A stretch of 64,000 nt of DNA from Fistulifera solaris (Eukaryota), in contig AP026124.1 in NCBI GenBank assembly GCA_030295235.1, positions 1,736,001 through 1,800,000 on the forward strand, written 5' to 3'. The notes under the pieces are model-generated. The model made no database searches. It was not told the DNA's origin and worked only from the letters and a program-made list of their open reading frames with translations. The position numbers were made by a program, and so were the translations under genes. Positions 13,730-48,704 of this stretch are shown in pieces (positions within the stretch are counted from its first letter, which is position 1; the number at the start of each line of letters is the position of its first letter).

Positions 13730-14570
13730 AATGCCTCGATGATCGATGAGCTCACTGAAAAATTAAACAGGCAAGCACCGATTTATCGACTCGCCAAGTA
13801 TTGATGTCTTTATTGTCGTAGACCTTCGACTTTTGCCGCGTTTGTTGTGGTTGTTTAAAGTGACTGCTTCTACGTCGTATCGAAGGCCGCCTTGTCTTGC
13901 CCCTTGCCTGGCATTTTTTCTAGCTCCTTCCACCTTTAAAATAAAACCGCTGTGTCGATTATTCGTTTTTCATATAGAAGATCATCCGTAATAGTGTGGA
14001 GTTGGGGAAAGTAAAGATTACATTGCAAGTTACAGTGGTGCTTAAATGACTCGTGACTCATTGTATTGGCAATACAGTTCTGTACATTAATTGGTCACGT
14101 CTGATAGACAGTCTTGACAAAAGTGTACCAGTGACCACGACCACGGATTTTGAAAGCATGAGCGGACGAAAAACAAACGTGAGGAGGCCAGCAAACCAAA
14201 ACGTTAATTTCAACAAACAGCACACCCTGTCGAAACGAATCTTTACCATTTGAATATTACTAATTCGCTGTTAGCATAATCACAAGCTTTTGTGTCAGTC
14301 TTTTGAATACAGTTTTCAAGAAATCTCTGCAATCATTACGGTCCCCGTGATAACTACCCATCTTGACACTTCAGCAGCTCCCTGTCGCTGCTCGCAATTA
14401 GCCGAATCATCATCTATATCGATACCGCTTCTCAGCACTTGTTATCCGGCGCAAGAGTGTCGGATTACAACATCTTCAAAACGATTTCTTTCACGAATAC
14501 TCGAGAGATTTGGCTACTTGCCAAAGGTTTATATTTTATACGATAAGCGGTGACAAAACATACTTGAAAA

Positions 14571-15846
14571 ATGGTAGTCCGCGGAGGTACCATCATTAAT
14601 ATTGCTGGAACTACACCAGTGGATGATCCTGCGTACCGTTACAAGATGCCGGCCGTTTTCGGAAAGATTGAAGGTTCCGGAAATGGTATCAAAACGGTGC
14701 TTGTAAACGTGCTGGATGTTGCGAATTCACTTCATCGCGAGCCGGGCGAGGTAAGCAAGTTCTTCGGTACGGAAATGGGCGCCCAGTCTCGCTACAATGC
14801 GGATACGGATCGTGCCATTGTCAACGGAGCACATACGGATGCTACTCTTCAAGATCTCATGCATCGGTACATTGAGAAATTTGTTCTGTGCCCCACTTGC
14901 CGGTTGCCCGAAACCAAGTACAAGATCAAGAGCGACACCATCTACCACTCCTGCGCGGCGTGCGGTGCGAAGGATATGGTCGACATGAGTCACAAGCTGT
15001 GCAACTACATATTGGCGGAAAACAAAAAGGCCAAGAAGGATAAAGGCAAGGACAAAAAGTCGAAGAAGGAGAAAGATGACGATTCGGATGGCAAGAAGAA
15101 GAAAGACAAGAAAGCCAAAAAGGATAAGAAGGAGAAGAAAAAGGACAAGAAAGACAAAGGTAAGGTTCATTTTTGCATGTTACCAGTTGTTGGGTCTTGT
15201 TCTACGGACTAAGCGATACCTTACCTGATATTTAGAAAACGGAGACAAGAACTATATCAAGGATGCTCTTTCTGGCAAGAAAGATGATGAATTTGATGAA
15301 GATGACGATGAAGATGATAGCTCTGACGCCACCGAAGTTGTCGACGATGAGAGTGCTTTCCAGCTTGCTGTTGACGCCACGAAGACGTTCATTAAGGAGA
15401 ACGCTAATGCCACAGACGACCAGCTCATCGAGTATGTCACTAATCAGCAGATGGCTTCGGCTCTCAAGTCTCATGACAAGATTCGAATCCTCATTCTGGC
15501 TGCTTTTACACCCGACTTTTACAAGAACAAGGAGGTTGAAAAGTATGCTTCTGTCATCGCGCGCATCGCCAACTCGAATCGAATCATGGAACGTCATATC
15601 ATTTCCGCGTTGGAAGCATTTTGCGTCGAGAAAACGAAGAACTTTCCTGTTTTACTTAAGCAGCTGTATGACGAAGATGCTTTGGACGAAGAGACGATTT
15701 TGGAGTGGGCCGATCAGGGCCGCAGTGAGTTCACTCTACCGTCAGTCGACGAAGACTCGCGTGCGATCCTTCGCGGCGAAGCTGAACCCGTTGTCGTTTG
15801 GCTCCAGGAAGCTGAGAGTGAAGATGAAAGCTCTGATGAGGAATAG
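14571..15846 (+). CDS. eIF5: Eukaryotic translation initiation factor 5
   Basis: DDPAYRYKMP...IEGSGNGIKT, zinc ribbon CPTC...CAAC, Lys-rich linker, intron 15160-15235, and W2 domain LYDEDALDEETILEW...WLQEAESEDES. Confidence 0.95.
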
Positions 15847-17633: not shown

Positions 17634-20600
17634 CTATTTGCTTGTTGAGGGTTTTCTTTGTGCCTTCTTCCCTGAAAAGGCGGCCCCGATTCCTTTACCT
17701 GCATTTTTAACTCCTGAGAAGAGGCCCTGCCCGACTGAAAGCACGCCATCTGCTGTTCCACTTACAACTGACTCCACGCCGCGACCAACGCCGTTTCCTA
17801 TCGATGACAGCCCACTTGTGATTCCTGATGCGGCCGCTTTTCCATCTCCCTTTAGGACCCCCCTGGCCAATACCTTTTCCAATAAGCATGGCACCTCCAG
17901 AAACTAGTCGCCTGTCAGTTCACGCCTAATGATATTCTTGCTTATGAGAACAGATTTGTTACTTACCTCCACCAAAAACGTGACCGACGCTTTGTCCTGC
18001 GCCCTTCAACACAGAACCCGCTCCTTTTCCGACTAATGGTAGGTGTACGATTGAAGAAATGAGTACACGTTTGACAAGCGTTATGAAGTTCATACGGACT
18101 CACCTCCCGTTAATGTCTCTGAGACACCTGAACCAACCCCGGAAATAACACTGTTGGCTCCGGCTCCAAGAGATCTCGCGCCGACTGCACCAGCTACGTT
18201 CTCAATCCCTGCACCTAGCTTCTCTGTCGCAAAGCTCACACCCTTCCCCAGACCACGTCCAGCTTTTGCGAAAACTAAATTTGCTGTGTTTCCGGCAATA
18301 TTTCCTGTCACACGAAGAATGTCTCCCTCCATATAAGCATCGTCACCGCCATCACGATCGGCTAGGCGTTTCCAGTCCTCGAAACTAGCCGCTGTCATGA
18401 TGTTGAATATTTTCAACTTCATCCTCGACAAGTAAACTGTTGAGATCAATTCAAGAAGTCGATCCGGCGGTCCTTTAACATTTTGAACTTCGTAACGGGA
18501 GAATTTTAGCTCAGCCCTGTCGATTTTAAACTTCAAATGCTGAGTGAAGTAATTCATCAGATTGGCTCCGCGAACCCCGCGGAGAACAGCATAGCGAGAC
18601 GCTTGAGGAGCCCGATTGAAGCTAAGCAATACCTTGAATGGCGATACTCGCGCTCGCTTTACATCGTACAACATTGCACTTTGCGGTGGTGTGTAGACGC
18701 TTCTGCTTGCGTCACGCAATGTTGACTTGTCAAGGACTACAACTTTGTATTCGCCATGTTTTTCGTCCCAGTGCAGCTCTATTTCCAACCCAGCAAACTC
18801 TCCGGCTGCGGCCACAATGCGATCAGCAAGATCCAGAAACTTCCAAGCGAATTCCTCGCTTGTGTTCACGATGATTTTCTCCGATGCGCCGTTCGCATGG
18901 GCAAGGTTAAGATCGAACAAGTCAATCGTTGTCAAGTCGGCGCCGAGTGGACCTCGAAGGCGAATACAAAGGTCGAAAAAGTTTGCTTGGTTAGTTGAAT
19001 CCAAGACAACAGGATAAGGCGAATTTGGTGTATCATCTTTGATTTGAATCGCGTTGATTATAATAGACAGCTGAGCGCGTTCTGCAGACCGATAAGCAAG
19101 TTGTTCTGGAGTAACTTCGTCCTTAAAGACGCGCTGCCAGTCCACAGTGAATCGATGAAAAATTACTGTACATACCGGTCCTGACATCCCTTCAGACTTC
19201 TGGTCGAAGCGAGCTTGTCGGGTAGACATCCAGGACTTCGCCGATCGCGTATCGTTCTGTTCATATCCTGCGCGCCTGACCCTATCCATGGCAGACTCTA
19301 GATACAGATTTTTGGTATCCTCTACTGGACGAGCTTCGTAGAGGGACATCCTAAGCTCAGTCCATTGAACGCGTAAGCGAAGGTGATCACTCTGAAGTAT
19401 TGATCCCGTCAATAGGCTGTGTTCCGCGCCTTCCAAATGGCTTCTTTTCAACTCTCCGACTTTCACTACTAAGCGAGAATCATATGCCCCTGTCGTAGTT
19501 TGCAAGGCAAGGCTCCCAAGTGGTTCCCCGTCTAACGACCGAACAACAGCAATACGAAGACCAAGGCCCTCGACATTAAGGGCGGCGGTATGTCCTCGGC
19601 TGTTTAAACACTCGACTGAAATAATGGCACCCTGTTTAGACGCAGTGCGCAAAGGTGCGATTGAACCAGGACCGATAACAACCTCCAGCCCACCGGGTTG
19701 TTTGACGCAGATTCGTTCATGAGAACTTCCGTTAAATACAATATACTCTGGAACCACGTGAATTTCCGACTGATAAGGGCTTATGAGTCGCCGGTAAGCG
19801 TAAAATTCTGAATCAGATCCATCTTCCCATTTAACAGCTGTGGACTCGACTCCGCCTGAGGATATCATAATATCCTGAAGGCAGAAGGGTGATGACCTGA
19901 CAATGCCTTCATCACCTTCCATTGTTAGATGCAACAGCCTAATTGGTTTGCTAGAGAGTGGTAGAGGCGTTAGCCGGCCGACATGCTGTTGAGTGGAATA
20001 TGCAGCCAACGTGACACCTCCACGATCAGTAACAAAGTGCTCCGATAATCCCGACATGCTTTGACGGAAAGATTTTCGACTCGACTGCTCAACTTCCTCA
20101 AAAGGACTTCGCCTGTATGATCAACAGCGAAATTGCATGAAGTTATAGAGAAAACAATGTGGTTAGCAAATGAGCCGTTGGTCAACTCGATTTCCTGATC
20201 AGAAGGGATGCTTCCTTCAAAAGAATCTTCGGATAAATTCAGGTCACCTTGGACAATAAACATTTCGATGCCACGGATAGAAGATCCGATCATTACACCA
20301 TGCCTTGCAAATGGCAAGACAAATCGCAATGGTTCCGTGAGCATAAAATCGGGGTTCAAGGGAAGATCAATCCATTCTCCTTCAATCCAACCTGTTTCTG
20401 TTCCGCACACGGGCTTGTCGGTACATTTTATTGCTAGTGCAATTGAAGGGCCTGGGGTAAATAATTCCAGCCGAGAGAGGTGATCTAGAATAAACGTATC
20501 GTTGCCTTCACCTTCGATTTTGACCTCTTTGAATATATACGGCATTGGGGATCGAATAGTCATCGTGATAGGCAAGGCATTCTCAAGGACCGCGCGTGGC

Positions 20601-23600
20601 TCCAAAAAGATATCTAAAGCAGGTAAATGGCCATCGACTTCCTCAGCTGAGAGAGCGTATTTCAACACAAATGGTGGGTTGCATCCAGAACATTCGTCGC
20701 GACAAGACACATCTACGCGTCGCCGAATTCGTGAGCTGATGTCTGTTTCGTCCAAAGCAATGTCTATAAAACCAGCTGGCATTGATTCAGATGACAGGCC
20801 GTCAATAAGGGGCGCGACCTGGAAACGGAGCGTCGCTTTACCATGCAATGACCAGCCCGTTCTAAAGTTCCGTAGTAGTTCTGCCGGAACGCTAAAACGA
20901 GTTGAACTCTTCTGGGCCTTTCCCTCCCTAAATTTTTTTCTTGGACGCGTTGCATGCAGTGTCCCCTTCACATATCCCTAAATGGATTATCTTATCTTCA
21001 TCCACAAGGCCGAGCATGAAAGGAATACTCGTGGTGTTAAAAATTTCAACACCACTCGTTAAAAGAATTACCTTTTTGAACGAAAAGTTTAGAAATATTC
21101 CCAGATAAGCAATGAAATCCACCATCATTCACTTACAACGGTATTTCCTTCTTTCCTTACATCAACTACAATAACTGAGCCGTTTAAGAGGGCATGGGAG
21201 CGTCGTCCCGTCCCAATAGCAGCATCAACGTTTCCCACCATTATCTCAGAGCCACCTATGAGAATGGTTATTGTTTTTCCTGCTTTAACGTCTTGGCCAT
21301 AAACACGGAGGCCAGCTGAGCCAGACCTCGTTGGCGGTTTGAACATGAAATAATCAACTGAACCGCTTTCACAATTCCGTGGCTTTGTTGTCTCGTTGTC
21401 AATCACATATTCTACCATTAGCCCTGTTTGATTTTCGACTGCATATGGTAGAGAAGCCACAAACTTTCTTGCCGCGCTTGCTGCAAGGCTTCTCCTGAGA
21501 GTTTTCGACACGTTTGCGTCTATGTTGACTGAATCAGTTGCAGCGCAGTACACGTTCCACATCCGGTTCGCTGATGCGAGCCCCATTAGAAATTGCTCCG
21601 AAAATGACAGGAAACAAACTTGGCATTCAAAATCAATCGCAGTACTTGGTCGCGGACCTTCATATCGGTCAGTGGGCCCCCTTGACCCTTTCGAGGAGAT
21701 TTCCCAGTTCCTTAACAAAAGCTGTTTCCATATATTGCTTGTAACATCGAAAAAATCAGCCCCAATCGACATGGTAGTGTGAAAGTCGAATCCGTCGTAA
21801 GCATTGCATCGATCTTTCAATGATACCCCGTGTCGCACTTTTCCGTTAAAAACAGAGTTGTGCAATGATATCCTGAATAGAGGCTCGTCAAGGCCTTGAA
21901 AGTCATTGATTAAGGTAAAACGAACTTGCGGTAAAGTGAACTGCATTGCTGTAATCGCTGTCGATGCACCATCACCTTCATAATGCTCCTCCGTCGAAGA
22001 TAAAGCCTTCGAAAGGCTATCAACTCGCTGACTTTGAAAGCTAGAGTCTGTACGATCAGCAGCGAGATCCATGGCTAGCTTCTCAATTCGTTTCGTTTCG
22101 TCGTCATCTAAAACTCCAAGGGATGATGAGTCACCATCTCCTAGAAGGTTCGAAGATAAGCTTGCCAGTATAGCATTCATGAGGGCAATGTTTCTCATTG
22201 AGAGAATCACTTCTAGATGCTCCATGGCAGCGCCTCTAATGTCAACAACTTTGCCGTCAAAATCGTCTTTCATGTTCAAGTATAAAGACAATTTCGTCGG
22301 TTCAATCAGCTGCATTGCACTTTCTACGGTTTTTCTAAATGCAGTGTAGCTTTCGAGCTCCTCGCCATGAACATAACCTTGAAAACTTCTTGTCTTTCCA
22401 GTGGAAGTATCGCCTGTCAACGTAAGAAGCGCCTCGAATTTGCCTTCGAATGCGATCGTTTCAGTGTCCGAAGCGATAGTAGACGAGGCACGAGAGGATC
22501 CGTTTCCCCGCGGTGCCTCCGTCCCGAGATCTACGAGAATAATACTGCATCTTGAAGTTTTTAATCGGAACTCAAAAGCGGAGAGATTTTCTTCGCTAAT
22601 TCGTGAATCAGGGAAGGACATCGTACCAAGTTCTGTTTCGATCATAACAAGGGGATCAGCTTTAAGGTGCAAGTCGATGTCGTCGTCAAAACTTTGCGAG
22701 TTGTCATTTTTGAGGTAGTCCAGTATTTCCGCTAACGCATCTGGGATCAGAACAAGACGCGGAGATCCAATGACAACGCTCACGGAAGTGCTTAAATTTC
22801 CCGTTGTTTCGTACGATAGCGTGAAAAGGTCTTGTGCTTCAATAGTGGTGGGCTGGTACACCAACGAACGGTATTGCCGCGTTAATGATCGAAGGCGGAG
22901 ATCGTCGCAATTTAGATTTTTCATTTTTATTTCAGCAGTGGTCCTCACTGTATCTGGGTACATGTTGTAGAATATAACGGTATTCGAAGCTGAAAGGCGA
23001 ACAATGGGATCTTCTTTATCTTCCCCATCTAACTCCAGTGACATTTCAAGAATCGTCAAACTTATAAAAATCCTCCTTTGGGAGTCCACAAAACGATTTC
23101 CTGCGTGCGTTATGTTTGTGACTTCAGAGGTCAACACGGAAGCCCCCGACTGAAGTGGACCTTTATAAAGCTCATTTTCTCTCAAGTATAAATCTGCGTC
23201 GCCAAGGTTCTGTGCTAAAGTAAAAAGAAGCTGTGAATAATTCTTTTTGGAACCACAAGCCCGGCCTTTGGTATGTCGATCGAGACTCGTATGGCCTGAT
23301 CATCACTGGTATGCATTCCATCTGGTGGAACAAGAACTTGTATCTTCATCTCAAAAGGACTATCTTGCAACGCCACTTCATTGGAATCAAAAGTTCAGTT
23401 TTCGTAAGAGCAACATTCGCAACACAGCTTCCGTTCATTTTCGCCGTATAATCCAAGCACAATGTCCCGGCGTACAGATTAAAAAATGTCATTTTATATG
23501 CTGCTTGGGGGAGCACGATTTCGATTCCGGTGGCATTGACCCTAAATAGTTTCGAAGATCCCGCAGGCGTCGATAAATCGACGGCGGCTGCTACTGCCGA

Positions 23601-26600
23601 CGATGCAGCTTGAGCAGCGAGCGCCCCAAGGATCCCCCTCAGTTGCATATTCCGCGATAGCAAGAATTTGTGAGTGGATGTAGACTATACGAACAGAAGA
23701 GAGTTCAATGAGACCACATGCTTCTACATCGTCAGAAACATTGAATGGCAAAGCCGCCATTGTCTCACGATTCTCAGTGTATCTCACTTTAAGCAAAGTT
23801 TGCGTTTTTCCAGGGATGAGTCCTAGTATAGTCCTGTACGACGACTCGGTCCTGCCCAAATAAGGTGTAGAAATGGTTAAATCACCAAGAAGTACAGAAA
23901 TGTCACTTTCATTCATTCCACACGAAATATACGACACCGATGTGTCTTTCATCATGAGAAGGAAAAGCGGAAAGTCATCCTTAGCTGAATTCAAAACGAG
24001 TTGAAAATTGTCAACCAGAATCGCAACTTCGATAGTTTCTGAGACATATTCATTGTCTATTTTGTCAACTCCGTTTTCTTGGACAGAAGGCGCGAGGATT
24101 TCTCCCGACTTGATATGCACTTGAACTGATGCGAGTAAGCTTGAAAGCTTTATAGTAAGCTCTTTCATCACTAAAGGATTCCAGTTCACTGTCATCCCAG
24201 AAAATTCAGCTTTGATCTCTGTTCGAGCCACAGGTCCATTATCTTTCGAGCCAGAATTTACAAAACGTTTTCGAAATGATACATCGGCAAGACAACGATC
24301 AGAAATCTCAGAACTTGAACCTTTCATTTTCGAGGAGTCGCCAAACTGGTGAAGTTTTTGAATCACATCATCTGTAGAGTCAAATCTTGTGACCGACTGA
24401 GGAAGCGGGGAGTGCACCAAAAGCCAATTTTCTCGCGGGATAGCGCTCTCAATGTTTTCAAGCACCCAAAAGTGACCCATTGACAATTGAGACTGTAAGG
24501 ATTTATCTGAAAACATCGTAAGTGCCGTCCCTGCAGATACCAAATGAGCTTCAATTATGCTCGCTGGACTAAAATCATTCTTCACGAAAACGGAAAATCG
24601 TCCGAGCTTTGCACTAGCATAAATTTTGGGTAAAGGAGAAACTTCGTCGGATACTTTTTCAGCATTCTCGTTGTGTGACCCAGCCAACCGAGAAAGCTCG
24701 GTTGAAACCATTGGAGTGCCATGACCAAGCTCCTTCGCAGGCACTATATCTTCGAATACATTCTTCCATGTAACTGACATAGCAGCAATTCGCGATAGTT
24801 TGTCCTTCGAAAAAGCAAGCGCGATTGAGGGCATGTCGGCGAAACAGCAAAAGCGAGGGACCAAGTCACTGGAGCAACTTTCAACACCGAAGCAAACGGA
24901 AAGAGTAACTGGTTCTAGGACAGCGTAATCACCGGCCACACCCTCAGAAGATGATCGATTTCGGGTACATGAGTCTGCTCGGACAAGAGAGAAACTCATA
25001 TGATTGATCTCAACGGTACCGAAATCCAGAATAGTAATCGTAGATTCAGCAGCATCTCGCGGATTGTTGCCAAACCAATGCGAAACATCTTGGCTACCAT
25101 CAGAGAGTCCATACTGCAAGCGAAAATGACCGAGATCAAACATAAGAACGCTGGAAAAAGGGTCAACACAGGTCTCCGGAATAAGTACAATAGGAGCATG
25201 AAGGTCCAAATCAACTGTCAGGTCTGACTTGTCTTTCGTCTTTTCCTTCCATGCGTCAACGAGCGCGGACGAGAAGTCCGCGCCTCCGAACTCAAAATGT
25301 TTGGAGCAGCCTCCTTTTCAATGGCCTTCTCCCCTTCGCTAGTATCGTAAAACAAATCGACAGATCCAGATAACGACTGCGCGAGGAGTGGATTGAGTTT
25401 GAACTTCTTCGAACTAGTGCGTAAGGGAGGTGCCATGAAGTGAGCGGTTTCTGTAAGAAGGACCGGTGAAGCGACTGCCTCGAAGGTGTGTAATTTTACT
25501 TTTAAATTTTGATCTCCACGTGCAGTTTTGTGAAAATGTACAGAAAATGCTTCTCCAATGTCTTCGGTCCCTCGATTATGTAGGACGATTGGAAACAGAC
25601 TGTTGACGGTAATCTTATCCCGAATTTCAAGACTTCTCAATTGAAAATCAAAACTGTAAGACCCGTCAGAGTTCGCTTCAAATGAAGATGTTACTTTTCC
25701 CATTTCTAAGCCTGCCAGCTGTCTCAAATTATAGGAAGTGAGGTGAACTCGCATAGACCCCATGGTAAAGCTTATTTGGCACAACTTTGAATTGGAATCA
25801 AGGTCGTCACTTGTAGCTTGCGTCATAAATGCGGATTCTAACTCCTTCATCTCTTCAACGGACAACTGAATTGGCGGGTCATCGCGATCTGAGGAAATAG
25901 GACTGGACTTCACCGAAGATCCAAATAAAGATGTGAACAAACTGGTTTTTGTTTGAGCCCGTTTGGCATCGTCCTTTTCACGCTCCTTGTCAAGCTGCGC
26001 GTCTGCCACATTCCGCCAGATCATCAAACCATCCACCGCGATCGAACGATCACCTTCAATTTTTAGCAATTCAGATAATTCCTCTATACTCAGCGGCTGC
26101 AACCACGAGCAAGATTCATGATTCGCGTGTCGTTTGTACAACCCTATATACATCTTGCGCTTTTGGTAAGCTCGGAAGAACTCCCACCACAACGACCTGC
26201 CGCTGAGACGTCGAATACATCGATATGCATATTTCCACCAACTGAGCGCCGTTTGTCTCGTAACACGGGACAGGGGGCGATATTCGGGGAATAAAGGTCT
26301 TGAGATGTCAATGGCTGGGCGAATCCTATCTGCAATTTCCCATCCCATCTCAAGTTGGGCCCGAGAAACGATGATAGAGAGAGCACTAAGCTCACTTTCT
26401 AGCAAATACTTCGGAAAGTCTGTACAGTGACCGGAGTCTGCTTGTCGGAGCTTCGCTGTAAATGAGAGAGGCGAGAGAATGTAATTGCGTTCTGGCTGAC
26501 CTTCTTCCCTGATAGACGGCATTCCCCGTCCCGCATTCTCATCCAAATAGACACCCAATCCATTAATCTGTAGCCCCTTGTAAAGGAAATTTTGGTCTCC

Positions 26601-27272
26601 TTTAGTGCGGTCAACAAAAGCTCGCTGGCCATCTTGGTCCGTGGTTACGAGCTGAAAGGATTCGAGTTCCACACCGGCAGCGGCAGTTTCACTCTTCAGC
26701 GATATGTGCACATCTGATATCTCCACTTGTATGTTTTCAATGATCCGGCGAACCAACCTGGAACTAAAAGTGGACGAAGGCGCATTTTTCTTCGAAGACG
26801 TATTGTCGATATCTTGTTCCGCAATCTTCTTTAATGCGTTTGAACGGATTCGAAACGTGTCTTCCTGTTTTATTGCTGCCATGCGAGCTTCTTGTAGCTG
26901 TTGTGCTCGTATTAATTCGTTTTCAGCTACCGCATAAAGATGGTCCATGGATTCCGTCCGATCGTACGGTTCTACCGTGATCTCCAAACCTTGCGCTGTC
27001 AAAACTACCGAGCGGCTCATCAAATTCGCCCACGGCACATCGACCTGAAAACTTTGAAATTGACCCGACGTGAATCGAAACGGAATCGCTAGATTCGGAG
27101 TCAAGGCCGCCTGTCGATCTAGTTCCGCATTGACAGCGTCAATGTCGAGTTCCAAGCCATGAAGCTCGATCTTTCCACTCCACACCGCAAGATTCAGTGA
27201 ATTGGCGTCTAAATTGCGAACATATTTCCCAATGGTCTGCTCGAGAACATCTAATAGTGCTTGTTTTGCCAT
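17634..27272 (-). CDS. VPS13: Vacuolar protein sorting-associated protein 13 (lipid transfer protein)
   Basis: Chorein_N start (LLDVLEQTIGKYVRNLDANSLNLAVWSGKIELHGLEL), IIENIQVEISDVHI, WWKYAY and LDLHAPIVLIPE motifs, and a Gly-rich amphipathic C-terminus. Introns near 21072-21136, 18031-18103 and 17913-17965, plus several homopolymer frameshifts. Confidence 0.9.
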
Positions 27273-27760
27273 CTTCTAAGTCTTCTAAAGAAACATAATT
27301 GTTTCTCGAAACTTATCCGGAATGCAGCAACTCCTCTCCACAACATTGCCTTCGCCACTTGTGGATTTCTTTCGTGCGGGTGGAAGGAGATTTTGACGCT
27401 CGAGGATGCTCCACACTCCACAGACGTCGTGTCTCGTGTCACAGCGAAGCCGGTCCGACCCCCTTCACACTAGCAATTATTGTAGACAAAACAGACTACT
27501 TTCTACTATCAAGAATCTTTACCTGCTCCTAATATCCATCCCTTTCGGAATCTCAACCTATGTACAAAACGCCGTATCTGGTATTCACAAGGATTTCCAA
27601 CACTGGACGGTATCCAGCGCTGCTTTTACATAGAAAACTCAACGCATTCAGCGATAATTGACAGCGACGGTGCCAGCGAAATTTCGATCGGCATCAATTG
27701 AAAAAGTTGGAGGAAGAATATTCAAACGATCCTTCAAGCAACGATTTTTAAGATAAGACG

Positions 27761-31069: not shown

Positions 31070-31440
31070 TCTCATCCTTTTATTTGGACAAAATGCGAGG
31101 TCCGAGGTCGAGATGCGAGAGAAAAGAGATAACGGTCAGAATTCAGAATCCGAACCAAAGTGCCACGTCCACGTCGAGTGAGAACTTATGAAAGAAAATG
31201 TAACAATAGAAGTATGGCTACTACGTGGACTTGCAGTTGCAGAAGGCAATGAAAAAAGTATGGCCACAGTCAAACTGACACTCAACTACCACGAAAAGTG
31301 ACGTAATCATGTCGTCATGAACGATGACGTAACCACGTCGTCAACTTTTTATTCAACTGTCGGCAAGATTGCCACGTAGGATGACGTGACCGCTCGTACC
31401 AGTCTACGTAGCGGGTGGCGGCAAACACTCGCAAACAACA
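30886..31440 (+). repeat. ~77 bp direct repeat in the ABCC promoter (30886-30962 and 31363-31440)
   Basis: Both copies read gcaagRttgccacgtaggatgacgtga...taccagtctac...ggcaaacaYtcgcaaacaaca. Confidence 0.85.
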
Positions 31441-31578
31441 TTCTCACCCTTTTTCATTATTTATTCGACCACTCTCACAATTCTTTCGAGACGTCGATTT
31501 CATTCGACACAATCTCGAGCTCTCTAATCAACCTCGTTTCTATTGAGAGTATCAACAGTTGATTATCAAGCAATCATT

Positions 31579-34500
31579 ATGCCCGGTCCTTTTGCCCCGA
31601 TTACTGGAGGACGCGTCTCCGAGGTGGTCAACCAGGAGGCCGCCTTGTGCAAGTCCTCCTCCTGCCTTCCGACGTCGAACAAAGAGAACAAGGTCGACAA
31701 GTTCTGCAAGGACTACGAAGACTTTATCAATGTCTCAGATGCACACAAGATTTTCATCAGCAACTGGGAACAGGAAAAGAAGAAGACCGAGCAGCCAGAC
31801 GAGAAACCGTACAAGATGCTCTTGCGCTGTTTGTGGACCTCCTTCCGTTACGATTTCTTCAAGGCATTCTTCTCCAAGCTCACGTGGTCGATTCTTGTCA
31901 TCTTCTCAATCTACTACTTTGTTTTCGATATCCTTGACTTCATCAACAAGCGCGACAAGGAAATCCCCATCAACAAGGGCGAGTACTACGAGTTCTACCT
32001 CTGTGGAGGTTTCTTCGCTGCCATGTTCGTGCTGTCGATTGGTATCCAGCAAATGGGTATCTACTCGTCAATTTTGGGCTCCAAAGTCAAGGCAGCGCTC
32101 ACGACCGAGATCTACAAAAGATGATTGTCCGCGACCCTTACGGTTCCAAGGCGGATGTCGTCGCACTCGTTGCCAAGGATGTCGAGAAGCTCGCTGAAGC
32201 CTGTTTGAGCTTACAGTACTTGTGGTCTGGTATCTTCGAGACACTCGCTGCGTTGGCAGTCACGCTTATCTTGTTGGGTGCCACGATCCTTCCCGGCGTT
32301 GCTCTCATGGCAATCTTCATGCCGCTTCAGTACTACATGGGCATGGTCGTCGCCTACCGCAAGAAGGATTTGGCCAAAGTCTCGGACAAGCGCATCTCCC
32401 TCATGGAAGAAATCATGCGCAGTATCAAGCTCATTAAGATCTACGGTTGGGAAGCGTCCTTCTTCAAAAACCTCAACGAAATTCGCGCCGAAGAGAGTCG
32501 CTTGGTTGACGGAATCAACAACTACAAGTCGACTATCCTCGGTCTGATCTTCTGCTTGCCTCCTATGTTGTGCGTTGTCATTTTCGGGACAAAGGAAGCG
32601 ATGGATGAGATCGAGTCGGTTGTCGTCTTTACCGCCATGTCATTCTTCAATACACTACGTGTGCCGTTCTCCAAGTTGCCCAAGAGTCTCCGCGATGTGC
32701 TCGATGCCTTGTCCAGCATGGAACGTATCCAAGCCTTCTTGCTCGAGCCAGAACTGAGTGTCGCCGAGAAAAAGAACGACGCGCCTTCCAACCACAAAGG
32801 CATCACCTTCCGCAATGCTTGCTTGTCGTACGGCATGGACGGAGCCATCTTGTTGAACGATGTGAACTTGAACATCCCACAAGGCGCGCTCATGATGGTC
32901 GCTGGATCGGTGGCTTCCGGAAAGTCCAACTTGCTGAAATCTATCCTCGGTGACATGACCATGCGCAGCGGCCAGTGTCTCACGCCGGCATCGAAAGCCT
33001 ACGTTCCCCAGACCCCTTGGACGGCATTAGGGACCGTGCGAGACAACATTGTGTTCGGCTTGCCCTTCGATGAAACCTTCTACCGCAAGGTCATCTTCGC
33101 CTGCGCTTTGGAACCTGATTTGAAGATGATGCCCCTTGGAGACCAGACATGGATCGGAGAACGTGGAGGCAACTTGTCCGGAGGGCAGAAGCAACGTATA
33201 GCTCTCGCCCGCGCCGCATACAGTCGCGCCAAACTCTACGTATTGGACTCTCCCTTGTCAGCCGTCGACATGTACACGTGCCAGCACATCTTCAAGCTCT
33301 GCATCAAGGACATCATGATTGCTGGTGGCGGAACGGTCGTCCTGGCTACCCACCAGACAGAATTATTCCACATGTCGGACCATTTGGTTGTGATGAAGGA
33401 GAACAACGTCGTGTACAACGACAAGTACTCCTTCAAGGGTATCAAGCACCTCTTCCCCAACTTTTGCGGTGACGAAGTCGCTGAGAGCACCCAAGCCGGT
33501 TCTTCCCAAAAAATCGAACATCCTGCACCCTCGGAACCACACACCGAACCGCAAGATATTTTGGAACACCCCGAACATGGCGTCAAGGTAACACACGATG
33601 CCCTCGTTCCCCTCAAGCGTCATCCCCCATGACTCCGTCGCCGTCGACAAAGAAAATCATTACCAAGCCGCACGAAGAAAGCGAAGGAAGCATTTATTGG
33701 TGGTACATCCAAAAGATCGGCGTTTGCTTGTTTTCAACTGCGACTCTGATCTTTATTGTTGGTCAGATCTTCCGCGTGTACAGTGACAACTGGGTTTCGG
33801 TCTGGACCAAGCGCAAGTACGAACCGGAACGCACCGCCGATGCATTCTATGCCGGTCTCTACGGATTGTTGGTCTTTGTCTTTTGTGCATGTCCTTCTTG
33901 CGCGCCTTCTTCTACTACCGTACGGGCAAAGTTGGCGCCATGAATATTCACGATGCGGCATTCGGTGCCACCCTCAAGGCCCCCATGCACTTCTTCCATG
34001 TCACGCCCGTCGGTAAATTGTTGGCCTTTTTCTCTAAGGATGTCGAAATCATTGATGATCAGTTGGTCGACAACATCCTCATGTTCCAAATCATGTTCTG
34101 GATCTTCGTCATGGCCTGCGGTGTCGTTGCCTATAACTTGGTCTTCTTTTTGGTCATTGTCGCTGGATTGGCAGTTGTGTACATTTACACCGTGTACAAC
34201 TACATCCAAGCCTCCGTGCCTCTCATGCGCGCCGCGGAAGAGTCGGGTAGTCATGTCGTCGCTCACACGGCCGAGACGTTGAGTGGTCTGGCGGTGGTTC
34301 GTGCTTTCCGCATGGAAGACCGATTTGTGAACGAAAACGTGGGATTGCAAGCCAAGTCCGCCGTCGCTACCTTTTCCATCGCCAACCTCTCCTTGTGGTT
34401 GGCCTACCGCGTCGACTTGATTGGTGCCCTTTTGGTGTTGGGTTGCTGCCTCTTGGCCGTTGTCGACACCTCCATGGACGCTCCTATTGCCGGGTTGATT

Positions 34501-35448
34501 GTCAGTAATTCGTTCCAGATTCTTTTGTTCTTCAGTATCATGTCTCGCTTAATGGGTGACTTCCACGACAACATGAAGTCCGTCAACATGGCCCGCGAGC
34601 TCTGCGACTTGGAAGCTGAGCAAGAACCCGAACGTGAAGTCGAACCCCCGGCTCAGTGGCCGTCCAAGGGAGAAATCCGTTTCGAAGGTGTTGTCATGCC
34701 GTACCTACCCGGTCAACCGCCCACGCTCAAGGGTATCAATTTCAGCATCAGGGAAGGTGAAAAGATTGGTGTCGTTGGACGTACGGGTGCCGGCAAGAGT
34801 TCTTTGATTGTCGCTTTGTACCGCTTGGCTGAAATCTCCGAAGGAAGCATCCATGTCGACAACATTGATTGCGCGAACGTCAACCTGCACAAGCTTCGCA
34901 GCAGCATGGCCATCATCCCCCAAGAACCTGTCATGTTCTCTGGTACGCTCCGTTACAACTTGGATCCCTTCAACCAACACACCGACGAGGCACTGTGGGA
35001 TGTTTTGAAAAAGTGCTTGTTGGGTCCCGTCATCGAAAGCAACAGGGACGGCTTGAATACCAAAGTCGAACTCATGGGCTCCAACTTCTCGCTCGGCACC
35101 CAGCAACTAATTTGCTTGGCCCGTGCCATGTTGAATCCTTCCCGCATCTTGTTGTTGGACGAAGCGACCGCGGCCCTCGACTCCGATACGAACGCGGCCG
35201 TGCAACAGGTCTTGCATAAGCACTTCTCGCACCGAACTATTTTTACCATTGCGCACCGATTGGATACTATCATTGATTCCGATCGCATCTTGGTAATGAA
35301 TGCTGGTGTGGTTGCCGAGTTTGACACACCGCACAATTTGTTGGAAGACCACGATTCGATCTTCCATGAGTTGTGTATGAACACCGGTAAGGCACAGTTC
35401 GAAGTTCTCGCCGCCAGAGCCCGTGCGCTCGCCAATGAGAGGAAGTAA
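31579..35448 (+). CDS. ABCC/MRP-type full ABC transporter, HLA3-like (candidate bicarbonate transporter)
   Basis: TMD1-NBD1-TMD2-NBD2 layout. NBD1: GSVASGKS, LSGGQKQR, YVLDSPLSAVD. NBD2: GRTGAGKS, FSLGTQQ, LLLDEATAALD, IAHRL. No introns. Three single-base deletions (near 32118, 33627, 33882) join four ORFs into about 1290 aa. Confidence 0.9.
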
Positions 35449-36123
35449 AAGAAAGAAGCGAACAAGCTTCTAAGTTGATTGTATGAAGAGAGTCAATTAT
35501 TCTCGTCCGACGATAGAATAAAAGTAGTAGTGAATTGCGGCTTATATGTAGCACTTAATCTTTTTTTGCAGTAAAAGCATCTGAGGAGTTGGTTGCCGAT
35601 TGTCAATTTGTAGAATCACGACGAATACAGGGACCCATGGATTCGTAACCATGGGAACTCCACTCGCATGTCTCGGAATGTCAACAACAAGAAGCACGTA
35701 GTTCGAGCGCTTATGCAATCAATAGTTCCCCAAAGTGAGCATTGAAATCGTTTTCGTTATCCTTGAATTTCGATCAAAGGGAGGAAAGGTTATAATGAGA
35801 ATTTTCAAATGGAGAATGGTGTCTGTGGCAGCAATAAATCGTTTTTTTGTCGGCGGAAGCATGACTGGAACATATTATTCGATCACGAAACTTCCATCTA
35901 TAATACAAACCACCTTTTGAGGCTAGGTCGCTTATCGTTCTCATTATCTCAGACCAACTGCATGAAGTCCGCTGCGCTCTAGACGCACTGTCGAACTGCG
36001 GTGTTTTCCAATGAGCTCTTCTTTTATTATTTTTTTAATTTTTAAATTTGTGTCTTTTATAGAAGATTTATGTTTATCTTGTGGATACTTGTCTACTCGA
36101 TCTGTTTGATCACTTCTTGTACT

Positions 36124-38266
36124 TCAAATGAAATACCGTTTTACTCGCATTTTATCTAGTCCGCAAGTCAGAGCAGAAAGTGTTGTCTTCAATTCCTCGG
36201 CTATATCTTGTAAGCGTACCATCCCTTGGTCCTCTTCTTCATCCGCGGGTCCCCATAAAATAGCCGTGTCTCCTACGCGAACGGAAGCACCAACCTTGTC
36301 TTCTTTGTCTCCGACCGGGCCAAGGTCTACCATCATCATGTCCATACAAATATTACCAGCAACGGGGAACACTTTCCCGCGTATTTGGACTTTGCCGACC
36401 CCGTTCCCGAGTGCCCGAGGGTACCCATCCGCAAAACCAATCGTCAATGTAGCTATCCTGACATCATGCGGAGCAACGTAGGCGCGGTCGTAACCGACGC
36501 TGTCGCCAGTCTTTAGGATTGCAACATGCCGTATAGATGCACAAAGAGTTGATACCGCTTTTAGTTGCGGAAAAGCAGGACGTTGTCCAAAGATGGCACC
36601 TCCAACCCGGACAAAGCCTCTCGTGGTAGAGCCGTCTTGGCTAAGAATTTTCTCCGCATCGAAATGTGTAAGAGACGTCGTAAGTAATGCTGCCGAGTTA
36701 TCCGTGCTCACAGTAGGAACATTGATCCCAGCAGCTCTAACACGATTTAAAAGAAAGATGAACTTCTCCATCTGCGAATGAGAATATGTTGACGTTGCGT
36801 TGGCTTCGGCCATGTGTGTGCACATGCCGAAAAATTCAATCGGGGCATTGAAGAGAATCTCTGCGTCCACCAACTCTTTCAATATCTCAATTGTATCGCG
36901 TCGTTGTTCATTTTTATCGGGCTTGTCGACCTTAAAACCAAGTCTTCCCATTCCTGTATCAACGGAAGCGTGCCATCGCAGCCTTTTTCGTACTGCCATA
37001 GAGAGAGCGGCCGAACACGCTGTTGTGCTTCCGCCATCCATTTCACCGAAAGTTCCAATATTATGATTGCTGTTCATCTTTGCTAATTCGCGAGCCCTAG
37101 CGTTGCGTGCTTCCGCGTCAATGCCCGCAAAAACGGAACACGTTTTGCGAGTTTGGGAATCCGAGTTCGGCGCCGACACAAATACTTGTCTTTCTGTATC
37201 ATGGGATTCTGTCGAAGAATTATCAGTCGACACTGGATTTGATGCAAGGGCTTTTCCCTGGCGCTCCTCGAGTTGATTTACCGCTTCTTTGGCGGCTTTT
37301 TGACCCAAAAGGAGCGCCCTGACTTCCTTTGCCAGATCCTGACCTTGAACATTGCCAAGCGTATTTGGCGGATGAATGAGTGATTGTCGATTGATGGGGT
37401 GACCATCCTCCGTCCCAGAATCTTGGGGATTCCAAAGTGAATTATGTGTAAGGTTGTCCTTCAAAACGTTTGGTAAGTCCAGATTTACAGGTACTTTGAA
37501 GTTGTTGTTTTGAGCTTGGTCGGCATCCCTTGGAACAAGCGGTGCGAACAGAGCCTTCGCCTTAGCTTCATTCGCCGCCTGTTCCACTTCGATGCACTTT
37601 TCTCTCCTTTGAGTTTCTCACCCATGCCAGTAACTGCTCCGCTACTTCGGGACCTGACACCATCAGTTCGATTCCATGATACAAGTAGTCATCAAAGCAC
37701 CGTGGAAAATTTACCGGTGGTCCCAAAACGATGATACGTATCCGAGAAGGTCTCATACTCGGATTTCTTAAGGACACCGGTTCCACGTCATCATTATGGG
37801 TTGAAGACGTTACATTCGCCCAAAAAGAGGGATGACTACTATCCAGCGCTACGTGAAAATGCGAGGCAAGCTGTTTCGACCAACGTCCCGGAGGATTATT
37901 TTCAAACGCCCGACGCAGCTGGATGGCTTCTTCAAGGGTCGCGACTGCAAAGGCATCTGCCCCGCAGCAATCAGCGAGATGCAAGGCGGTCGCAATGGCG
38001 CCGTGGCCGTAACCATCGGCTTTGACGACGGTAATAACCGAGCAACTCTGTTCATTCGCGGCTGCTTCGACGCACGCGTAGTTGTGTTCCAGTGCCGACA
38101 AGCAGATACGATGCACAACTCTCTGTTCTTCCTCCTTTGATTTTATAGTTTGTCTGAGTTGAGTTTGATCATCGACGGTAACACCTTTCGTTCGACCCTC
38201 CGCCTCGGGCGTCGGTGAATTCGACGTACTGCAATGATAGCTTGAAAATGTCCTGGGGCGCGTCAT
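36124..38266 (-). CDS. alr: Alanine racemase (PLP-dependent) with long insertions
   Basis: PLP-Lys motif VVKADGYGHGA, AVATLEEAIQLR, VDTGMGRLG, CTHMA, catalytic-Tyr motif GDSVGYDRAY, IGFADGYPR and AGNICMD. One frameshift near 37598. Confidence 0.9.
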
Positions 38267-38775
38267 ATTTCCCGCAGATGGGCGCCCGCTGAACTGCTAT
38301 GTCAAGGGAGGATAGAGAGCAAAGACAAATGTGCATTTTTGTATCAGAAAGTTGCATTTCGAGGTCAATCAAAAGGTCACGTGTCACATCTTTCCAACGA
38401 AATCCATGTCCTGGCGGATTTTGCAGAAAAATGGACCTTGATCACTAAAAACCAGAGCGTTTCTGCCACGTTTTTTTCTTAGCAAGAGTGTTTCCCGGGA
38501 TAGTTTCCTTTCATTCACGAGCTTACCGAGTCCAGTCTGTCCGTGCGTCCTCATGAGCTGCACGTCACTCCAACCCCAGAGGTGACAACTAACTAACTTC
38601 AGCATTGTTCTGGACTAGGAGGCCTACATTGTCATGTTTGACAAAATTCTTTGACATTTTGTCTACTCTTTGCGGATGGATGGCGGTCGAATGATCGACA
38701 GTAGCATCACTCTAACATGTAACCTAACCTACAACTATGTGATTTTAGTCATTTGACATATAAAGCTATTACATT

Positions 38776-46098: not shown

Positions 46099-48704
46099 AT
46101 GGCCATCTTTTGGCCTGCCTGGCTTACTCAAAAAAGCCTTACAACATTATTCTGGCAGCCGAGACTTTTTTCTTACGCAGCCTCGTGGCTGCTACTGTAT
46201 AAGCCCAAATGGCTGCAAAACAAAAACATGATGTTCAAGTTGATAGCTCTCGTTGCGAGTGCGGGGCTATCGTGGTTTCTTTCACATGTCGTATTGGATT
46301 CCATGTCCCTGCCCGATGTTCCAGCAAAGGAGACAAATGATGGAATTATCATAAATTTGATTAATTCGTGGTTCCCTGCAGACGAACTGCGAGCGGCCTA
46401 TAATATCATGCTCGCCTTTGCACATCCCAGAGTTCTGCAGTCGCAGCTAGCACACCTATTCTTTGTGACCTTTCATATCCAAGTCGGAATGGGGTTTCTC
46501 GGTATCGGTTTCTTGCTCGAGGAACAATCAAGACGAAACATGTTGATTCGTTTGGATGTAGAGCCATCTACGAAAAGCGATGTCGTAAAAAGCGAAGAGT
46601 CAAAGACGGAAAATGGTTCACCCGACGGCAAAGTCGACACAGCCAAAATGGCACGGGCGCGCCGCTATCAGAAAGGAGCTGGGCCCTTTATTCTGTTCAT
46701 TGCGCTCCCCTATATGTTTCAAATCATTGTATATGGGAATATTAACCGATTTGCATTCACTTGCTTGGAACAAGATCTGCATCGTACTGTGCGTCTCAAC
46801 GATTTGTTTGACAATGATAGCAACTTGGCAGCCATGGCTCAGGCTGACAACGCCGTTTCTCCAGAGAGTAAGCAGGGTAGCAGTTTTGTGATCGGCTCAG
46901 CAACACTGCGCTAACACTTTGCCTTTTTCAATCGACAGCTTTCGCAAACTCCATGACATCGGTCGTTGATAAGGCTTACGATATTATCAACCGCAAGCTT
47001 TTTAGTCTACCAAAAGTATTGCTCTTGCCGGGTGTTATGACTAGACAGCCAATGTTGATGGTACAAGTTTTCCCCTTCATTTTCCTTTCTGACTGGATCA
47101 AAGCGTCATTGGTTTCGTACATGACTTCCTCAATTGAATCGCTAAGGAAGGAAACGATGGAAATTCGAGCAGTACGAACCAAAGTTGAATCATTTGATCT
47201 AAAAAATGCTGAATTACTTCAACGATCTGGACCAGGCGCATCAGCTTTCACACAGAGTCGCTGGGAAGAGCTTACCGTAAGAATCCAGAAACGCGATAAT
47301 GTCGCTGATCTGATTAGCCGCTCGAAAGCCTTCTTCGCGTTCATGCAGCGCAACTTCGTTTTTACTGTACTAATCGACTGCGCTTTGGCATCACTAATGG
47401 CGGTAGGAAAAATTGTTTCGGCAGAAATATTCGTGTTCTCTCGTGCTATTGAAGATGCTGTTGACATGGTACTTATTCGAAGCCGCAGCGAAGCAGAACT
47501 GGCTCAAATGTCAACCGACACCGATAAACTAAAAGAGTTGGCAGATCTTTGGTCGAAACACAGTCATGAAAAAACTCTTTTACCTTGCTCACTTCCCACC
47601 GCATCCGAAGAAAAGAAGCTAATTCTTCGTAACGTGCACTACACTCGCGGAACTGCGTCTGTTCGGGCCGATCACGTGGAATTGGGTCCAGGAGTTTATG
47701 CGTGTAAGTACTTTCAAGTGCTCTTCCCTCGTCCTCATACTTCTCCAACTCATTTGTTATTTCCCTATCCAGTGACTGGTTCGAATGGCAGTGGGAAATC
47801 GACTCTCTTTCGTGTGCTAATGAGTTGTCGTTCGAACGATCAGCCAATTGAACTCCCTAAGAGCATCAATTTACTCACCCCGATGGAACCCCTTTTGGAA
47901 GAAGACGACGTAATGCGGGAAATTAGCTGCACCGAGGCTGACCACGACACTGATGTGAATGCCACAATTACCGATTCCACCGGCGAGCCTGAATGTGAAT
48001 ACGTCATCAATGCGGCTACTGGAGAGGTGTCCGAAGATACAAAAACATGTCGCCACCTTTCCGAAACCCGATTAAACTCTGAGATTCATCCCCACCCTCG
48101 ACTTTCGATTACCATGCCATCCTCGCATGTCGCTGAAATCAGTCAGACATTCTACTGGCCTTTGTACGCGAAGCCAATTGAATGGATTTTCCACAAGTCA
48201 TTTACTGCTGTAGAGAAGGATACATTGGAAGAGAAAACACGACTTGTGGCAGAGCATCTCCACTCTCTCGACTTCTTCCAGCCAGTTACGCCGGAGGACT
48301 TGAAAGACGGTCAAGAGCCTTCCCAAGAAGCGATAACGGAGGCAACTATTCGGCATATTCAAAATGAACTTCAGGAAGAAAAAGAAGATTGGTTCAGCGA
48401 TCTCTCTGGAGGACAGAAAAGTAAAGTAGAGCTGGTGAGGAAGGTATTCCTCCAACAGAGTTGTCCCGATTTGCTGTTGATCGACGAAACAATGGCTCCC
48501 CTGGATCCATCATCCAAAGCGCACGTAATGGCAAAGCTAAAAGACTTTTGTAGGAGCAGCGTGGTTTTGGTCATTTACCACACGGACGTTGGACGTGAAG
48601 TTGGAGAAGCTGGAAATTCAGTCGAATGTGTTCCATCAAACAATTTCTTCGATTACAATATTCATCTTGACAAAGGAATTATTCAGATCAAATCCACATG
48701 CTGA
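46099..48704 (+). CDS. ABC half-transporter-like protein (membrane domain plus NBD)
   Basis: Multiple hydrophobic segments, Walker A GSNGSGKST, LSGGQKSK, LLIDETMAPLD and VIYH. Introns 46868-46938 and 47704-47772. Confidence 0.8.

Follow-up and report, generated by a model that had tools for sequence, protein, structure and literature searches.

A short ABCC transporter gene in the diatom Fistulifera solaris and its relationship to HLA3 of green algae

The locus and its deposited protein

We analysed a 64,000-nucleotide stretch of Fistulifera solaris DNA (assembly GCA_030295235.1, contig AP026124.1, positions 1,736,001 to 1,800,000 of the forward strand; hereafter the window), which holds a gene for an ABCC-type transporter. 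On the plus strand, positions 31528-35448 contain four long open stretches, between which the reading frame shifts. The deposited F. solaris protein FisN_12Hh325 (P0006 in our collection), a "hypothetical protein" of 1290 amino acids, matches the last of these pieces with 100% identity and maps exactly and collinearly onto the locus:

31579..35448, plus strand: complete short-ABCC coding sequence of 1290 codons and a stop (ATG at 31579, stop at 35446-35448)
31579-32118, plus strand: FisN_12Hh325 residues 1-180
32118-33629, plus strand: FisN_12Hh325 residues 181-684
33629-33883, plus strand: FisN_12Hh325 residues 685-769
33883-35445, plus strand: FisN_12Hh325 residues 770-1290

Adjacent segments have one base in common, so that each of the three joints lacks one base in the window. 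Outside these joints the window and FisN_12Hh325 are 100% identical, and no further stop or indel is present. No intron is needed. A GT...AG stretch of 30 nucleotides at 33588-33617 does not qualify as an intron: its length is a multiple of three, it is too short, and FisN_12Hh325 reads through it. A second F. solaris copy, FisN_22Lh092 (P0007, 1286 amino acids), is 90-93% identical (93% in the search with the last piece) and likewise reads through all three joints. F. solaris has been described as an allodiploid or allopolyploid in publications, and we therefore take P0007 as the homoeologue of P0006. Genome editing with Cas9 RNP has also been reported for the species (PMC13276009).

The ABCC gene is thus already known as a deposited hypothetical protein. 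An initial annotation, made from the sequence alone, had described an ABCC transporter of about 1290 amino acids with two transmembrane domains (TMDs) and two nucleotide-binding domains (NBDs) in the order TMD-NBD-TMD-NBD, lacking both a TMD0 and introns, and this description is borne out by Pfam, by alignments and by the exact mapping of FisN_12Hh325. Taken together, the locus is very probably an intact, intron-less nuclear gene of F. solaris that encodes a short ABCC (MRP-type) full transporter, belonging to a diatom-centred subfamily of a protist short-ABCC clade.

Frame breaks in homopolymer runs

The mapping of FisN_12Hh325 places the three frame breaks as follows:

32116..32119, plus strand: frame break 1, A run AAAA one base short, within TMD1
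33624..33628, plus strand: frame break 2, C run CCCCC one base short, within the linker between NBD1 and TMD2
33881..33884, plus strand: frame break 3, T run TTTT one base short, within TMD2

The window sequence as given carries three frame changes within 3.9 kb, which, if real, would make the locus a recently inactivated pseudogene. However, all three are one-base shortfalls inside homopolymers, and FisN_12Hh325 reads through them with 100% identity and no other stop or indel elsewhere. We further compared the region 31400-35600 with public contigs from four runs of this organism, all from one 2015 study, which contains 78% of the sampled words of the ABCC gene; smaller shares of these words were found in one wetland metagenome, one sediment metagenome and one run labelled "organism B". 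The contigs have longer homopolymers than the window. At frame break 1, an additional A behind 32115 is present in contigs of all four runs. At frame break 2, an additional C behind 33623 is present in X1, the sole run covering the site. At frame break 3, one X1 contig has an additional T behind 33880, and another X1 contig instead has an additional C behind 33882. These runs may include the data behind the deposited record and so are not fully independent of it; they consist of contigs of uncertain library type, which have no bearing on expression level or on a response to CO2. Pyrosequencing and nanopore reads are both prone to homopolymer miscounts. Both published F. solaris assemblies are described as built from pyrosequencing or nanopore reads (10.1101/2021.11.10.468027).

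The contigs aligned on 31400-35600 showed no joints. About one third of them are 90-95% alike, which fits the homoeologue, and two of these homoeologue-like contigs drop in likeness just beyond the start and the stop, with loose ends at 31579 and 35469. A fourth homopolymer shortfall was seen outside the gene: some 130 bases upstream of the start codon, a T run is longer by one T, placed behind 31449, in contigs of X1 and X2.

Because the run contigs carry the extra base at each homopolymer, we conclude that the gene is intact and attribute its three frame breaks to homopolymer errors made in sequencing or assembly. A pseudogene is exceedingly unlikely. The initial annotation had called for three frameshifts to be corrected; each is a one-base homopolymer shortfall, which FisN_12Hh325 reads through and the run contigs fill.

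Domain architecture and ATP sites

The domains of the encoded protein were delimited by Pfam and by alignment:

31579..31758, plus strand: family-specific N-terminus, about residues 1-60, replacing the first part of the L0/lasso motif of other ABCCs
31840..32717, plus strand: TMD1, about residues 88-380 (Pfam ABC_membrane; alignment), crossing frame break 1
32853..33257, plus strand: NBD1 (Pfam ABC_tran), with Walker A GSVASGKS, signature LSGGQ and Ser after Walker B
33258..33682, plus strand: poorly conserved NBD1-TMD2 linker (alignment), containing frame break 2
33683..34536, plus strand: TMD2, about residues 703-987 (Pfam ABC_membrane), containing frame break 3, with Ile at a position in transmembrane helix 17 (TM17) that is Trp in ABCC4, HLA3 and CrMRP2
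34726..35172, plus strand: NBD2 (Pfam ABC_tran), with Walker A GRTGAGKS and Walker B LLLDE including the catalytic Glu
35083..35106, plus strand: NBD2 signature NFSLGTQQ, with Thr in place of the usual Gln, a family mark

Pfam matches to ABC_membrane and ABC_tran fall in the second open piece, and both recur in the fourth. Among solved structures, the best 60 PDB sequences listed are all ABCC members, headed by ABCC2, ABCC3, MRP1, Arabidopsis ABCC2, Ycf1 and ABCC4 with E-values of 1e-181 to 1e-191, and matches in the ESM Atlas were to generic ABCC clusters alone (score 1.00), which do not discriminate between subfamilies or show how widely the protein is distributed. The alignment with human ABCC4 (solved structures such as 8bjf) is colinear and pairs query residues 62-1284 with chain residues 63-1290, whereas that with Ycf1 begins at query residue 61 and chain residue 261-285; the protein therefore has no TMD0. 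The forward TMD-NBD-TMD-NBD order, the full-length closeness to known ABCCs and the asymmetric ATP sites place it in the ABCC subfamily, and an L0-like stretch alone before TMD1 marks it as a short, ABCC4-like member.

One degenerate and one catalytic ATP site, with NBD1 lacking and NBD2 retaining the catalytic Glu, is the usual asymmetry of ABCCs. In FisN_12Hh325, site 1 is degenerate (Ser after the NBD1 Walker B, LDS; NBD2 signature FSLGT) and site 2 has catalytic motifs (Glu after the NBD2 Walker B, LDE; NBD1 signature LSGGQ). The Thr-for-Gln replacement in the NBD2 signature is a further departure beyond this asymmetry.

Three positions set the family apart in a 222-row alignment, which comprises 51 family rows, the 20 nearest environmental rows and 151 others. 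The NBD2 signature position is Thr in 43 of the 51 family rows (six gaps and two Ser), and Gln in 17 of the 20 nearest environmental rows and in 126 of the 151 others. The TM17 position is Ile in 47 of 51 family rows and Trp in 76 of 151 others; HLA3, CrMRP2 and ABCC4 have Trp, and FisN_12Hh325 has Ile. After the NBD1 Walker B, all 51 family rows read DS, and 131 of 151 others read DD. The diatom-centred ABCC family is now recognisable by simple sequence marks.

Distribution of the family

When 1.84 billion representatives were scanned in full with the last piece, a small set of close family members scored 816-856 bits and the nearest full-length relative 696 bits, followed by a continuum of ABCCs at 390-550 bits. 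In another search with the last piece, 51 of the 120 matches listed belong to the family clade. Those labelled with an organism are F. solaris, twice, and the MMETSP transcriptome of the pennate diatom Gedaniella sp. CCMP2646; the other family members listed come from metagenomes or from Logan. Named proteins from the annotated genomes of other diatoms were absent from the matches listed in the word-based searches with the last piece and with the N-terminal 130 residues. The matches fit, without proving, a patchy distribution among diatoms.

Two environmental family members from one 16.4-kb contig, P0030 and P0036, are 80-120 amino acids longer and have an added match to HSP20 (PF00011); this extension is probably a gene model fused with a neighbouring small heat-shock gene.

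Comparison with HLA3 and CrMRP2

The initial annotation had likened the protein to HLA3 of Chlamydomonas, for which low-CO2 induction, a plasma-membrane location and a role in bicarbonate uptake have been reported (PMC5102585). Cluster look-ups identified CHLRE_02g097800 as P0368 (1325 amino acids) and CHLRE_17g734612 as P0362 (1416 amino acids). Cre02.g097800 is HLA3, a plasma-membrane protein of 1325 amino acids (PMC5102585), and Cre17.g734612 is CrABCC10, formerly CrMRP2 (PMC9605142), to which the same source ascribes cadmium tolerance and a predicted vacuolar location.

In pairwise comparison, FisN_12Hh325 is 36% identical to HLA3 over 1283 aligned positions (687 bits), 35% identical to CrMRP2 (741 bits) and 32% identical to Bombina ABCC4 (P0166; 597 bits). 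Ranks were taken among 365 proteins of at least 900 amino acids, a set collected in this analysis rather than a full proteome. With FisN_12Hh325 as query, HLA3 ranks 104th of 365 and CrMRP2 90th, both behind Cyanophora (68th) and several other sequences; with HLA3 as query, FisN_12Hh325 ranks 93rd. The reciprocal BLAST that had been proposed as a check thus gave no reciprocal best match.

The two motifs that had been described as HLA3-like do not occur in HLA3. BLAST alignments of FisN_12Hh325 to HLA3, CrMRP2 and ABCC4 begin only at residues 54-63 (HLA3 at 54). In a 19-sequence alignment, the family has an N-terminus of its own, and HLA3, CrMRP2, Cyanophora, Andalucia and ABCC4 share the usual lasso-type start of ABCCs. 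The first 130 residues matched 9 of 35 candidates, all from the diatom-centred family and none green-algal, in a word-based comparison that distant likeness could escape. Among these sequences the N-terminus is confined to the family. As for the NBD2 signature, HLA3 reads AWSLGQMQ and FisN_12Hh325 reads NFSLGTQQ, and NFSLGQ is found in CrMRP2, Cyanophora and Andalucia. What holds of the likeness to HLA3 is that the score of the whole protein against HLA3 slightly exceeds that against ABCC4 (687 versus 597 bits) and that both proteins lie in a common, strongly supported protist clade; the protein is not specifically related to HLA3.

Phylogenetic position

A first FastTree was built from 222 proteins of 1000-1800 amino acids out of 266, leaving out shorter, longer and stop-containing entries. 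It pointed to an ABC transporter of Volvox carteri beside the diatom-containing clade, and a search with this protein recovered two chlorophycean groups, which include Chlamydomonas HLA3 and CrMRP2. The Volvox protein, a CrMRP2 orthologue, had stood beside the diatom-containing clade with a support of 0.94; with the HLA3 group and further green algae included, this placement gave way to a closed green clade.

For the final tree, 66 rows were chosen by hand from about 410 proteins and analysed with IQ-TREE under LG+C20+F+G4 by posterior mean site frequencies (PMSF), with a quick search and with support from the SH-like approximate likelihood-ratio test (SH-aLRT) only. Sixty of the 66 rows form a protist short-ABCC clade (SH-aLRT 100) that contains both HLA3 and FisN_12Hh325; outside it lie two fish MRP1, Acytostelium, Bombina ABCC4 and two fungal MRP4-like proteins. 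Within it, a closed green-algal clade (100) unites the CrMRP2 group (7 rows, 100) with the HLA3 group (11 rows, 100), and a separate 25-row clade (100) unites 13 rows of the diatom-centred family with 12 environmental relatives. The groupings that join the diatom and green clades, and that also take in Cyanophora, Paraphysoderma and one environmental group, have only weak support (81-91).

In the approximately unbiased (AU) test, holding the diatom-containing clade with the HLA3 group costs 142 log-likelihood units (p-AU 0.00023); the hypothesis came from the initial annotation, and the exact row sets were fixed after the tree had been viewed. The data neither support nor reject a looser arrangement, in which the diatom clade and the whole green clade would be near neighbours inside the protist short-ABCC clade. 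The ABCC tree that had been suggested as a check therefore does not group FisN_12Hh325 with HLA3, which instead forms one clade (100) with CrMRP2. FisN_12Hh325 is only a distant cousin of HLA3 and not a member of the HLA3 orthologous group.

The wider clade also has heterotrophic members, namely Andalucia, Salpingoeca, Capsaspora, Balamuthia, Acrasis, Paraphysoderma and the colourless alga Polytomella, and therefore as a whole is not devoted to photosynthetic carbon uptake.

Two observations concern the green-algal side of the tree. In Volvocales, the HLA3 group shows local expansion: at least 10 HLA3-group gene models of Edaphochlamys debaryana stand in tandem on one 2.84-Mb contig (HYH03_001286 to 001319), and Gonium and Chlamydomonas incerta have adjacent HLA3-group copies. 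In addition, a short ABCC of the blastocladialean fungus Paraphysoderma sedebokerense (P0138) adjoins the green HLA3 and CrMRP2 clade (SH-aLRT 91), apart from the two other fungal proteins. P. sedebokerense is a parasite of the green alga Haematococcus, and this placement may be a hint of gene transfer from host to parasite, or a long-branch effect.

Codon usage and origin of the gene

The initial annotation had noted a strong preference for TTC, ATC, GTC, AAG and GCC relative to the neighbouring genes. We compared the ABCC gene with 28 other stop-to-stop open reading frames (ORFs) of at least 200 amino acids, which are unverified and lie within the one 64-kb window. Its GC content at third codon positions (GC3) is 0.695, against a mean of 0.470 (standard deviation 0.041, maximum 0.584) in the 28 ORFs (z = 5.6), and all five codon fractions agree: TTC 0.80 versus 0.40, ATC 0.66 versus 0.31, GTC 0.55 versus 0.26, AAG 0.77 versus 0.45 and GCC 0.50 versus 0.23. 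The preference is thereby confirmed. TAC and AAC reach 0.93 and 0.78 in the ABCC gene, and GAG is not enriched (0.34 versus 0.36 in the 28 ORFs). GC content is 0.526 in 32001-34000 and 0.415-0.493 in all other 2-kb bins.

Such a composition could mark a gene that is foreign to diatoms and came by lateral transfer, from a green alga or a different donor. The initial annotation had considered lateral acquisition or patchy retention. The GC3 far above that of the neighbouring ORFs would be explained in this way, and the named diatom matches among the 120 listed are only F. solaris (twice) and one MMETSP diatom transcriptome. However, GC content at codon positions 1 and 2 is an ordinary 0.46, with no difference from the other ORFs, and the bias is therefore synonymous. 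Moreover, the gene is present in both F. solaris subgenome copies (P0006 and P0007) and in Gedaniella sp. CCMP2646, its closest relatives are environmental eukaryote sequences, and the family is not nested in green algae, whose clade is closed at support 100 without it. Nothing points to a transfer from green algae, and a foreign origin is highly improbable. The synonymous, C-directed bias fits translational selection better than foreign origin, and this preference for C-ending codons suggests strong expression of the ABCC gene.

An ORF with an eIF5/eIF2-beta domain (14568-15209, plus strand) has the second-highest GC3 in the window, 0.584, which fits the idea that GC3 tracks expression level in the F. 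solaris genome.

Other reading frames of the window

Three pairs of long ORFs on the minus strand overlap in different frames. Those at 36127-37617 and 37571-38296 encode the N and C domains of an alanine racemase, and those at 23545-25317 and 25221-27275 encode a VPS13 N-terminal region; in the pair at 18093-20120 and 19973-20977, the one ORF scanned had no Pfam match. The three pairs look like further one-base frame breaks, or short introns. Breaks like those in the ABCC gene probably affect other genes of the window, and gene models drawn from it call for caution. A second, unrelated ABC ATPase ORF (46881-48701, plus strand, 607 amino acids) matches ABC_tran alone, with no ABC_membrane match.

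Putative function and the bicarbonate hypothesis

In ABCC pumps, the NBD dimer closes when ATP binds, and the transmembrane cavity then opens on the side facing away from the cytosol; the single catalytic site returns the transporter to its starting state by hydrolysing ATP. Given this cycle, known from the family, FisN_12Hh325 would pump an anionic substrate out of the cytosol. The switch from the inward-facing to the outward-facing state would probably be driven by ATP that is bound and hydrolysed at site 2, and the substrate would be moved to the cell exterior or into an endomembrane compartment. Candidate substrates are organic anions, thiol conjugates and complexes of metals with thiols.

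Several points weigh against this account. The literature searched yields no transport, localisation or expression measurement for FisN_12Hh325 or its family. The family departs from typical organic-anion ABCCs in having Ile for Trp at the TM17 position, and two further features are derived, namely its N-terminus and the Thr that replaces Gln in its NBD2 signature; the substrate may thus lie outside the classical MRP (glutathione-conjugate) range. HLA3 shows that a member of the broad clade can serve inorganic-carbon uptake, which leaves such a role a small probability here. Finally, the suggested high expression is read from codon bias alone, against 28 unverified ORFs of one 64-kb window.

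In diatoms, bicarbonate uptake is attributed to SLC4 transporters and external carbonic anhydrases, with HLA3 and LCI1 as the green-algal solution, in the available text of PMC5853789 and PMC12758531. For Nannochloropsis oceanica, the genome paper reports no HLA3 orthologue (PMC3499364), and a study at low CO2 mentions induced ABC transporters that might carry bicarbonate (PMC6599299). In Ulva, putative HLA3 proteins have been reported (10.64898/2026.07.16.738900). In the literature searched on HLA3 in diatoms and on ABC and bicarbonate transporters of Fistulifera, we found no paper claiming a diatom HLA3 homologue or characterising the FisN_12Hh325 family, and neither FisN_12Hh325 nor FisN_22Lh092 occurs (0 occurrences) in the F. 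solaris homoeologue expression supplement (PMC5935921), which uses identifiers of the form fso:g....

The initial annotation had raised the possibility that the protein acts like HLA3, that is, in ATP-dependent bicarbonate uptake at the plasma membrane as part of a diatom CO2-concentrating mechanism, beside or instead of SLC4. FisN_12Hh325 does share the 60-row short-ABCC clade with HLA3 and scores somewhat higher against it than against vertebrate ABCC4. Its strong bias towards C-ending codons is compatible with high expression, its derived substrate pocket and N-terminus leave the substrate undecided, and the N-terminus has no hydrophobic signal peptide visible by eye. However, the protein is not sister to HLA3, and the AU test rejected that grouping (p-AU 0.00023). 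It scores higher against CrMRP2, associated with cadmium tolerance, than against HLA3 (741 versus 687 bits) and is not a reciprocal best match, and its supposedly HLA3-like motifs are absent from HLA3 itself. Moreover, the same clade occurs in many heterotrophs, no carbon-concentration gene lies among the neighbours in the window, and the diatom literature names SLC4 and external carbonic anhydrases but no ABC transporter in the available text (PMC5853789). An HLA3-like role is therefore very unlikely, its one basis being shared membership of a very broad clade. Since CrMRP2 is linked to cadmium tolerance and predicted to be vacuolar, function does not carry over even within the green clade. 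In addition, the HLA3 and CrMRP2 groups are sister paralogues confined here to green algae, and thus "HLA3-like" BLAST matches elsewhere say little about bicarbonate.

A slight chance can be given to another reading, in which the protein would transport anions at high flux in its own lineage. Conceivably it would be a bicarbonate route, ATP-dependent or CFTR-like, of benthic pennate diatoms that arose in parallel to HLA3 from ancient short-ABCC stock. This reading takes up three marks of the subfamily (the rebuilt N-terminus, Thr for Gln in the NBD2 signature and Ile at the pocket position that is Trp in ABCC4, HLA3 and CrMRP2), the absence of the family among named proteins of other annotated diatom genomes (in the matches listed) and the codon bias, which is as if for high expression.

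A true HLA3 orthologue would have pointed to ATP-driven inorganic-carbon uptake beside SLC4 in diatoms, which would be of real interest for marine carbon fixation. FisN_12Hh325 is instead placed as one more short ABCC, and its sequence by itself does not justify treating it further as a candidate for carbon concentration.

Comparison with known short ABCC transporters

FisN_12Hh325 and HLA3 are both short ABCCs without a TMD0, of similar length and with a degenerate NBD1, and both belong to the same protist short-ABCC clade. They are not orthologues, however: the HLA3 group is sister to the CrMRP2 group, and FisN_12Hh325 falls outside this pair. HLA3 has AWSLGQMQ and the TM17 Trp, whereas FisN_12Hh325 has NFSLGTQQ and Ile, and the two do not share their N-terminus.

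CrMRP2 has the same architecture as FisN_12Hh325 and lies in the same broad clade; NFSLG is common to both, and the pairwise score is slightly above that of HLA3. In contrast to FisN_12Hh325, CrMRP2 belongs with HLA3 in the green-algal clade and has a longer linker, inserts, Gln in the NBD2 signature and Trp at TM17.

ABCC4 (MRP4) has the same short domain layout and aligns colinearly, with a degenerate signature at site 1 and a canonical NBD2. It differs in sharing only 32% identity, in lying outside the protist clade, and in having a canonical lasso N-terminus, the signature NFSVGQRQ and Trp at TM17.

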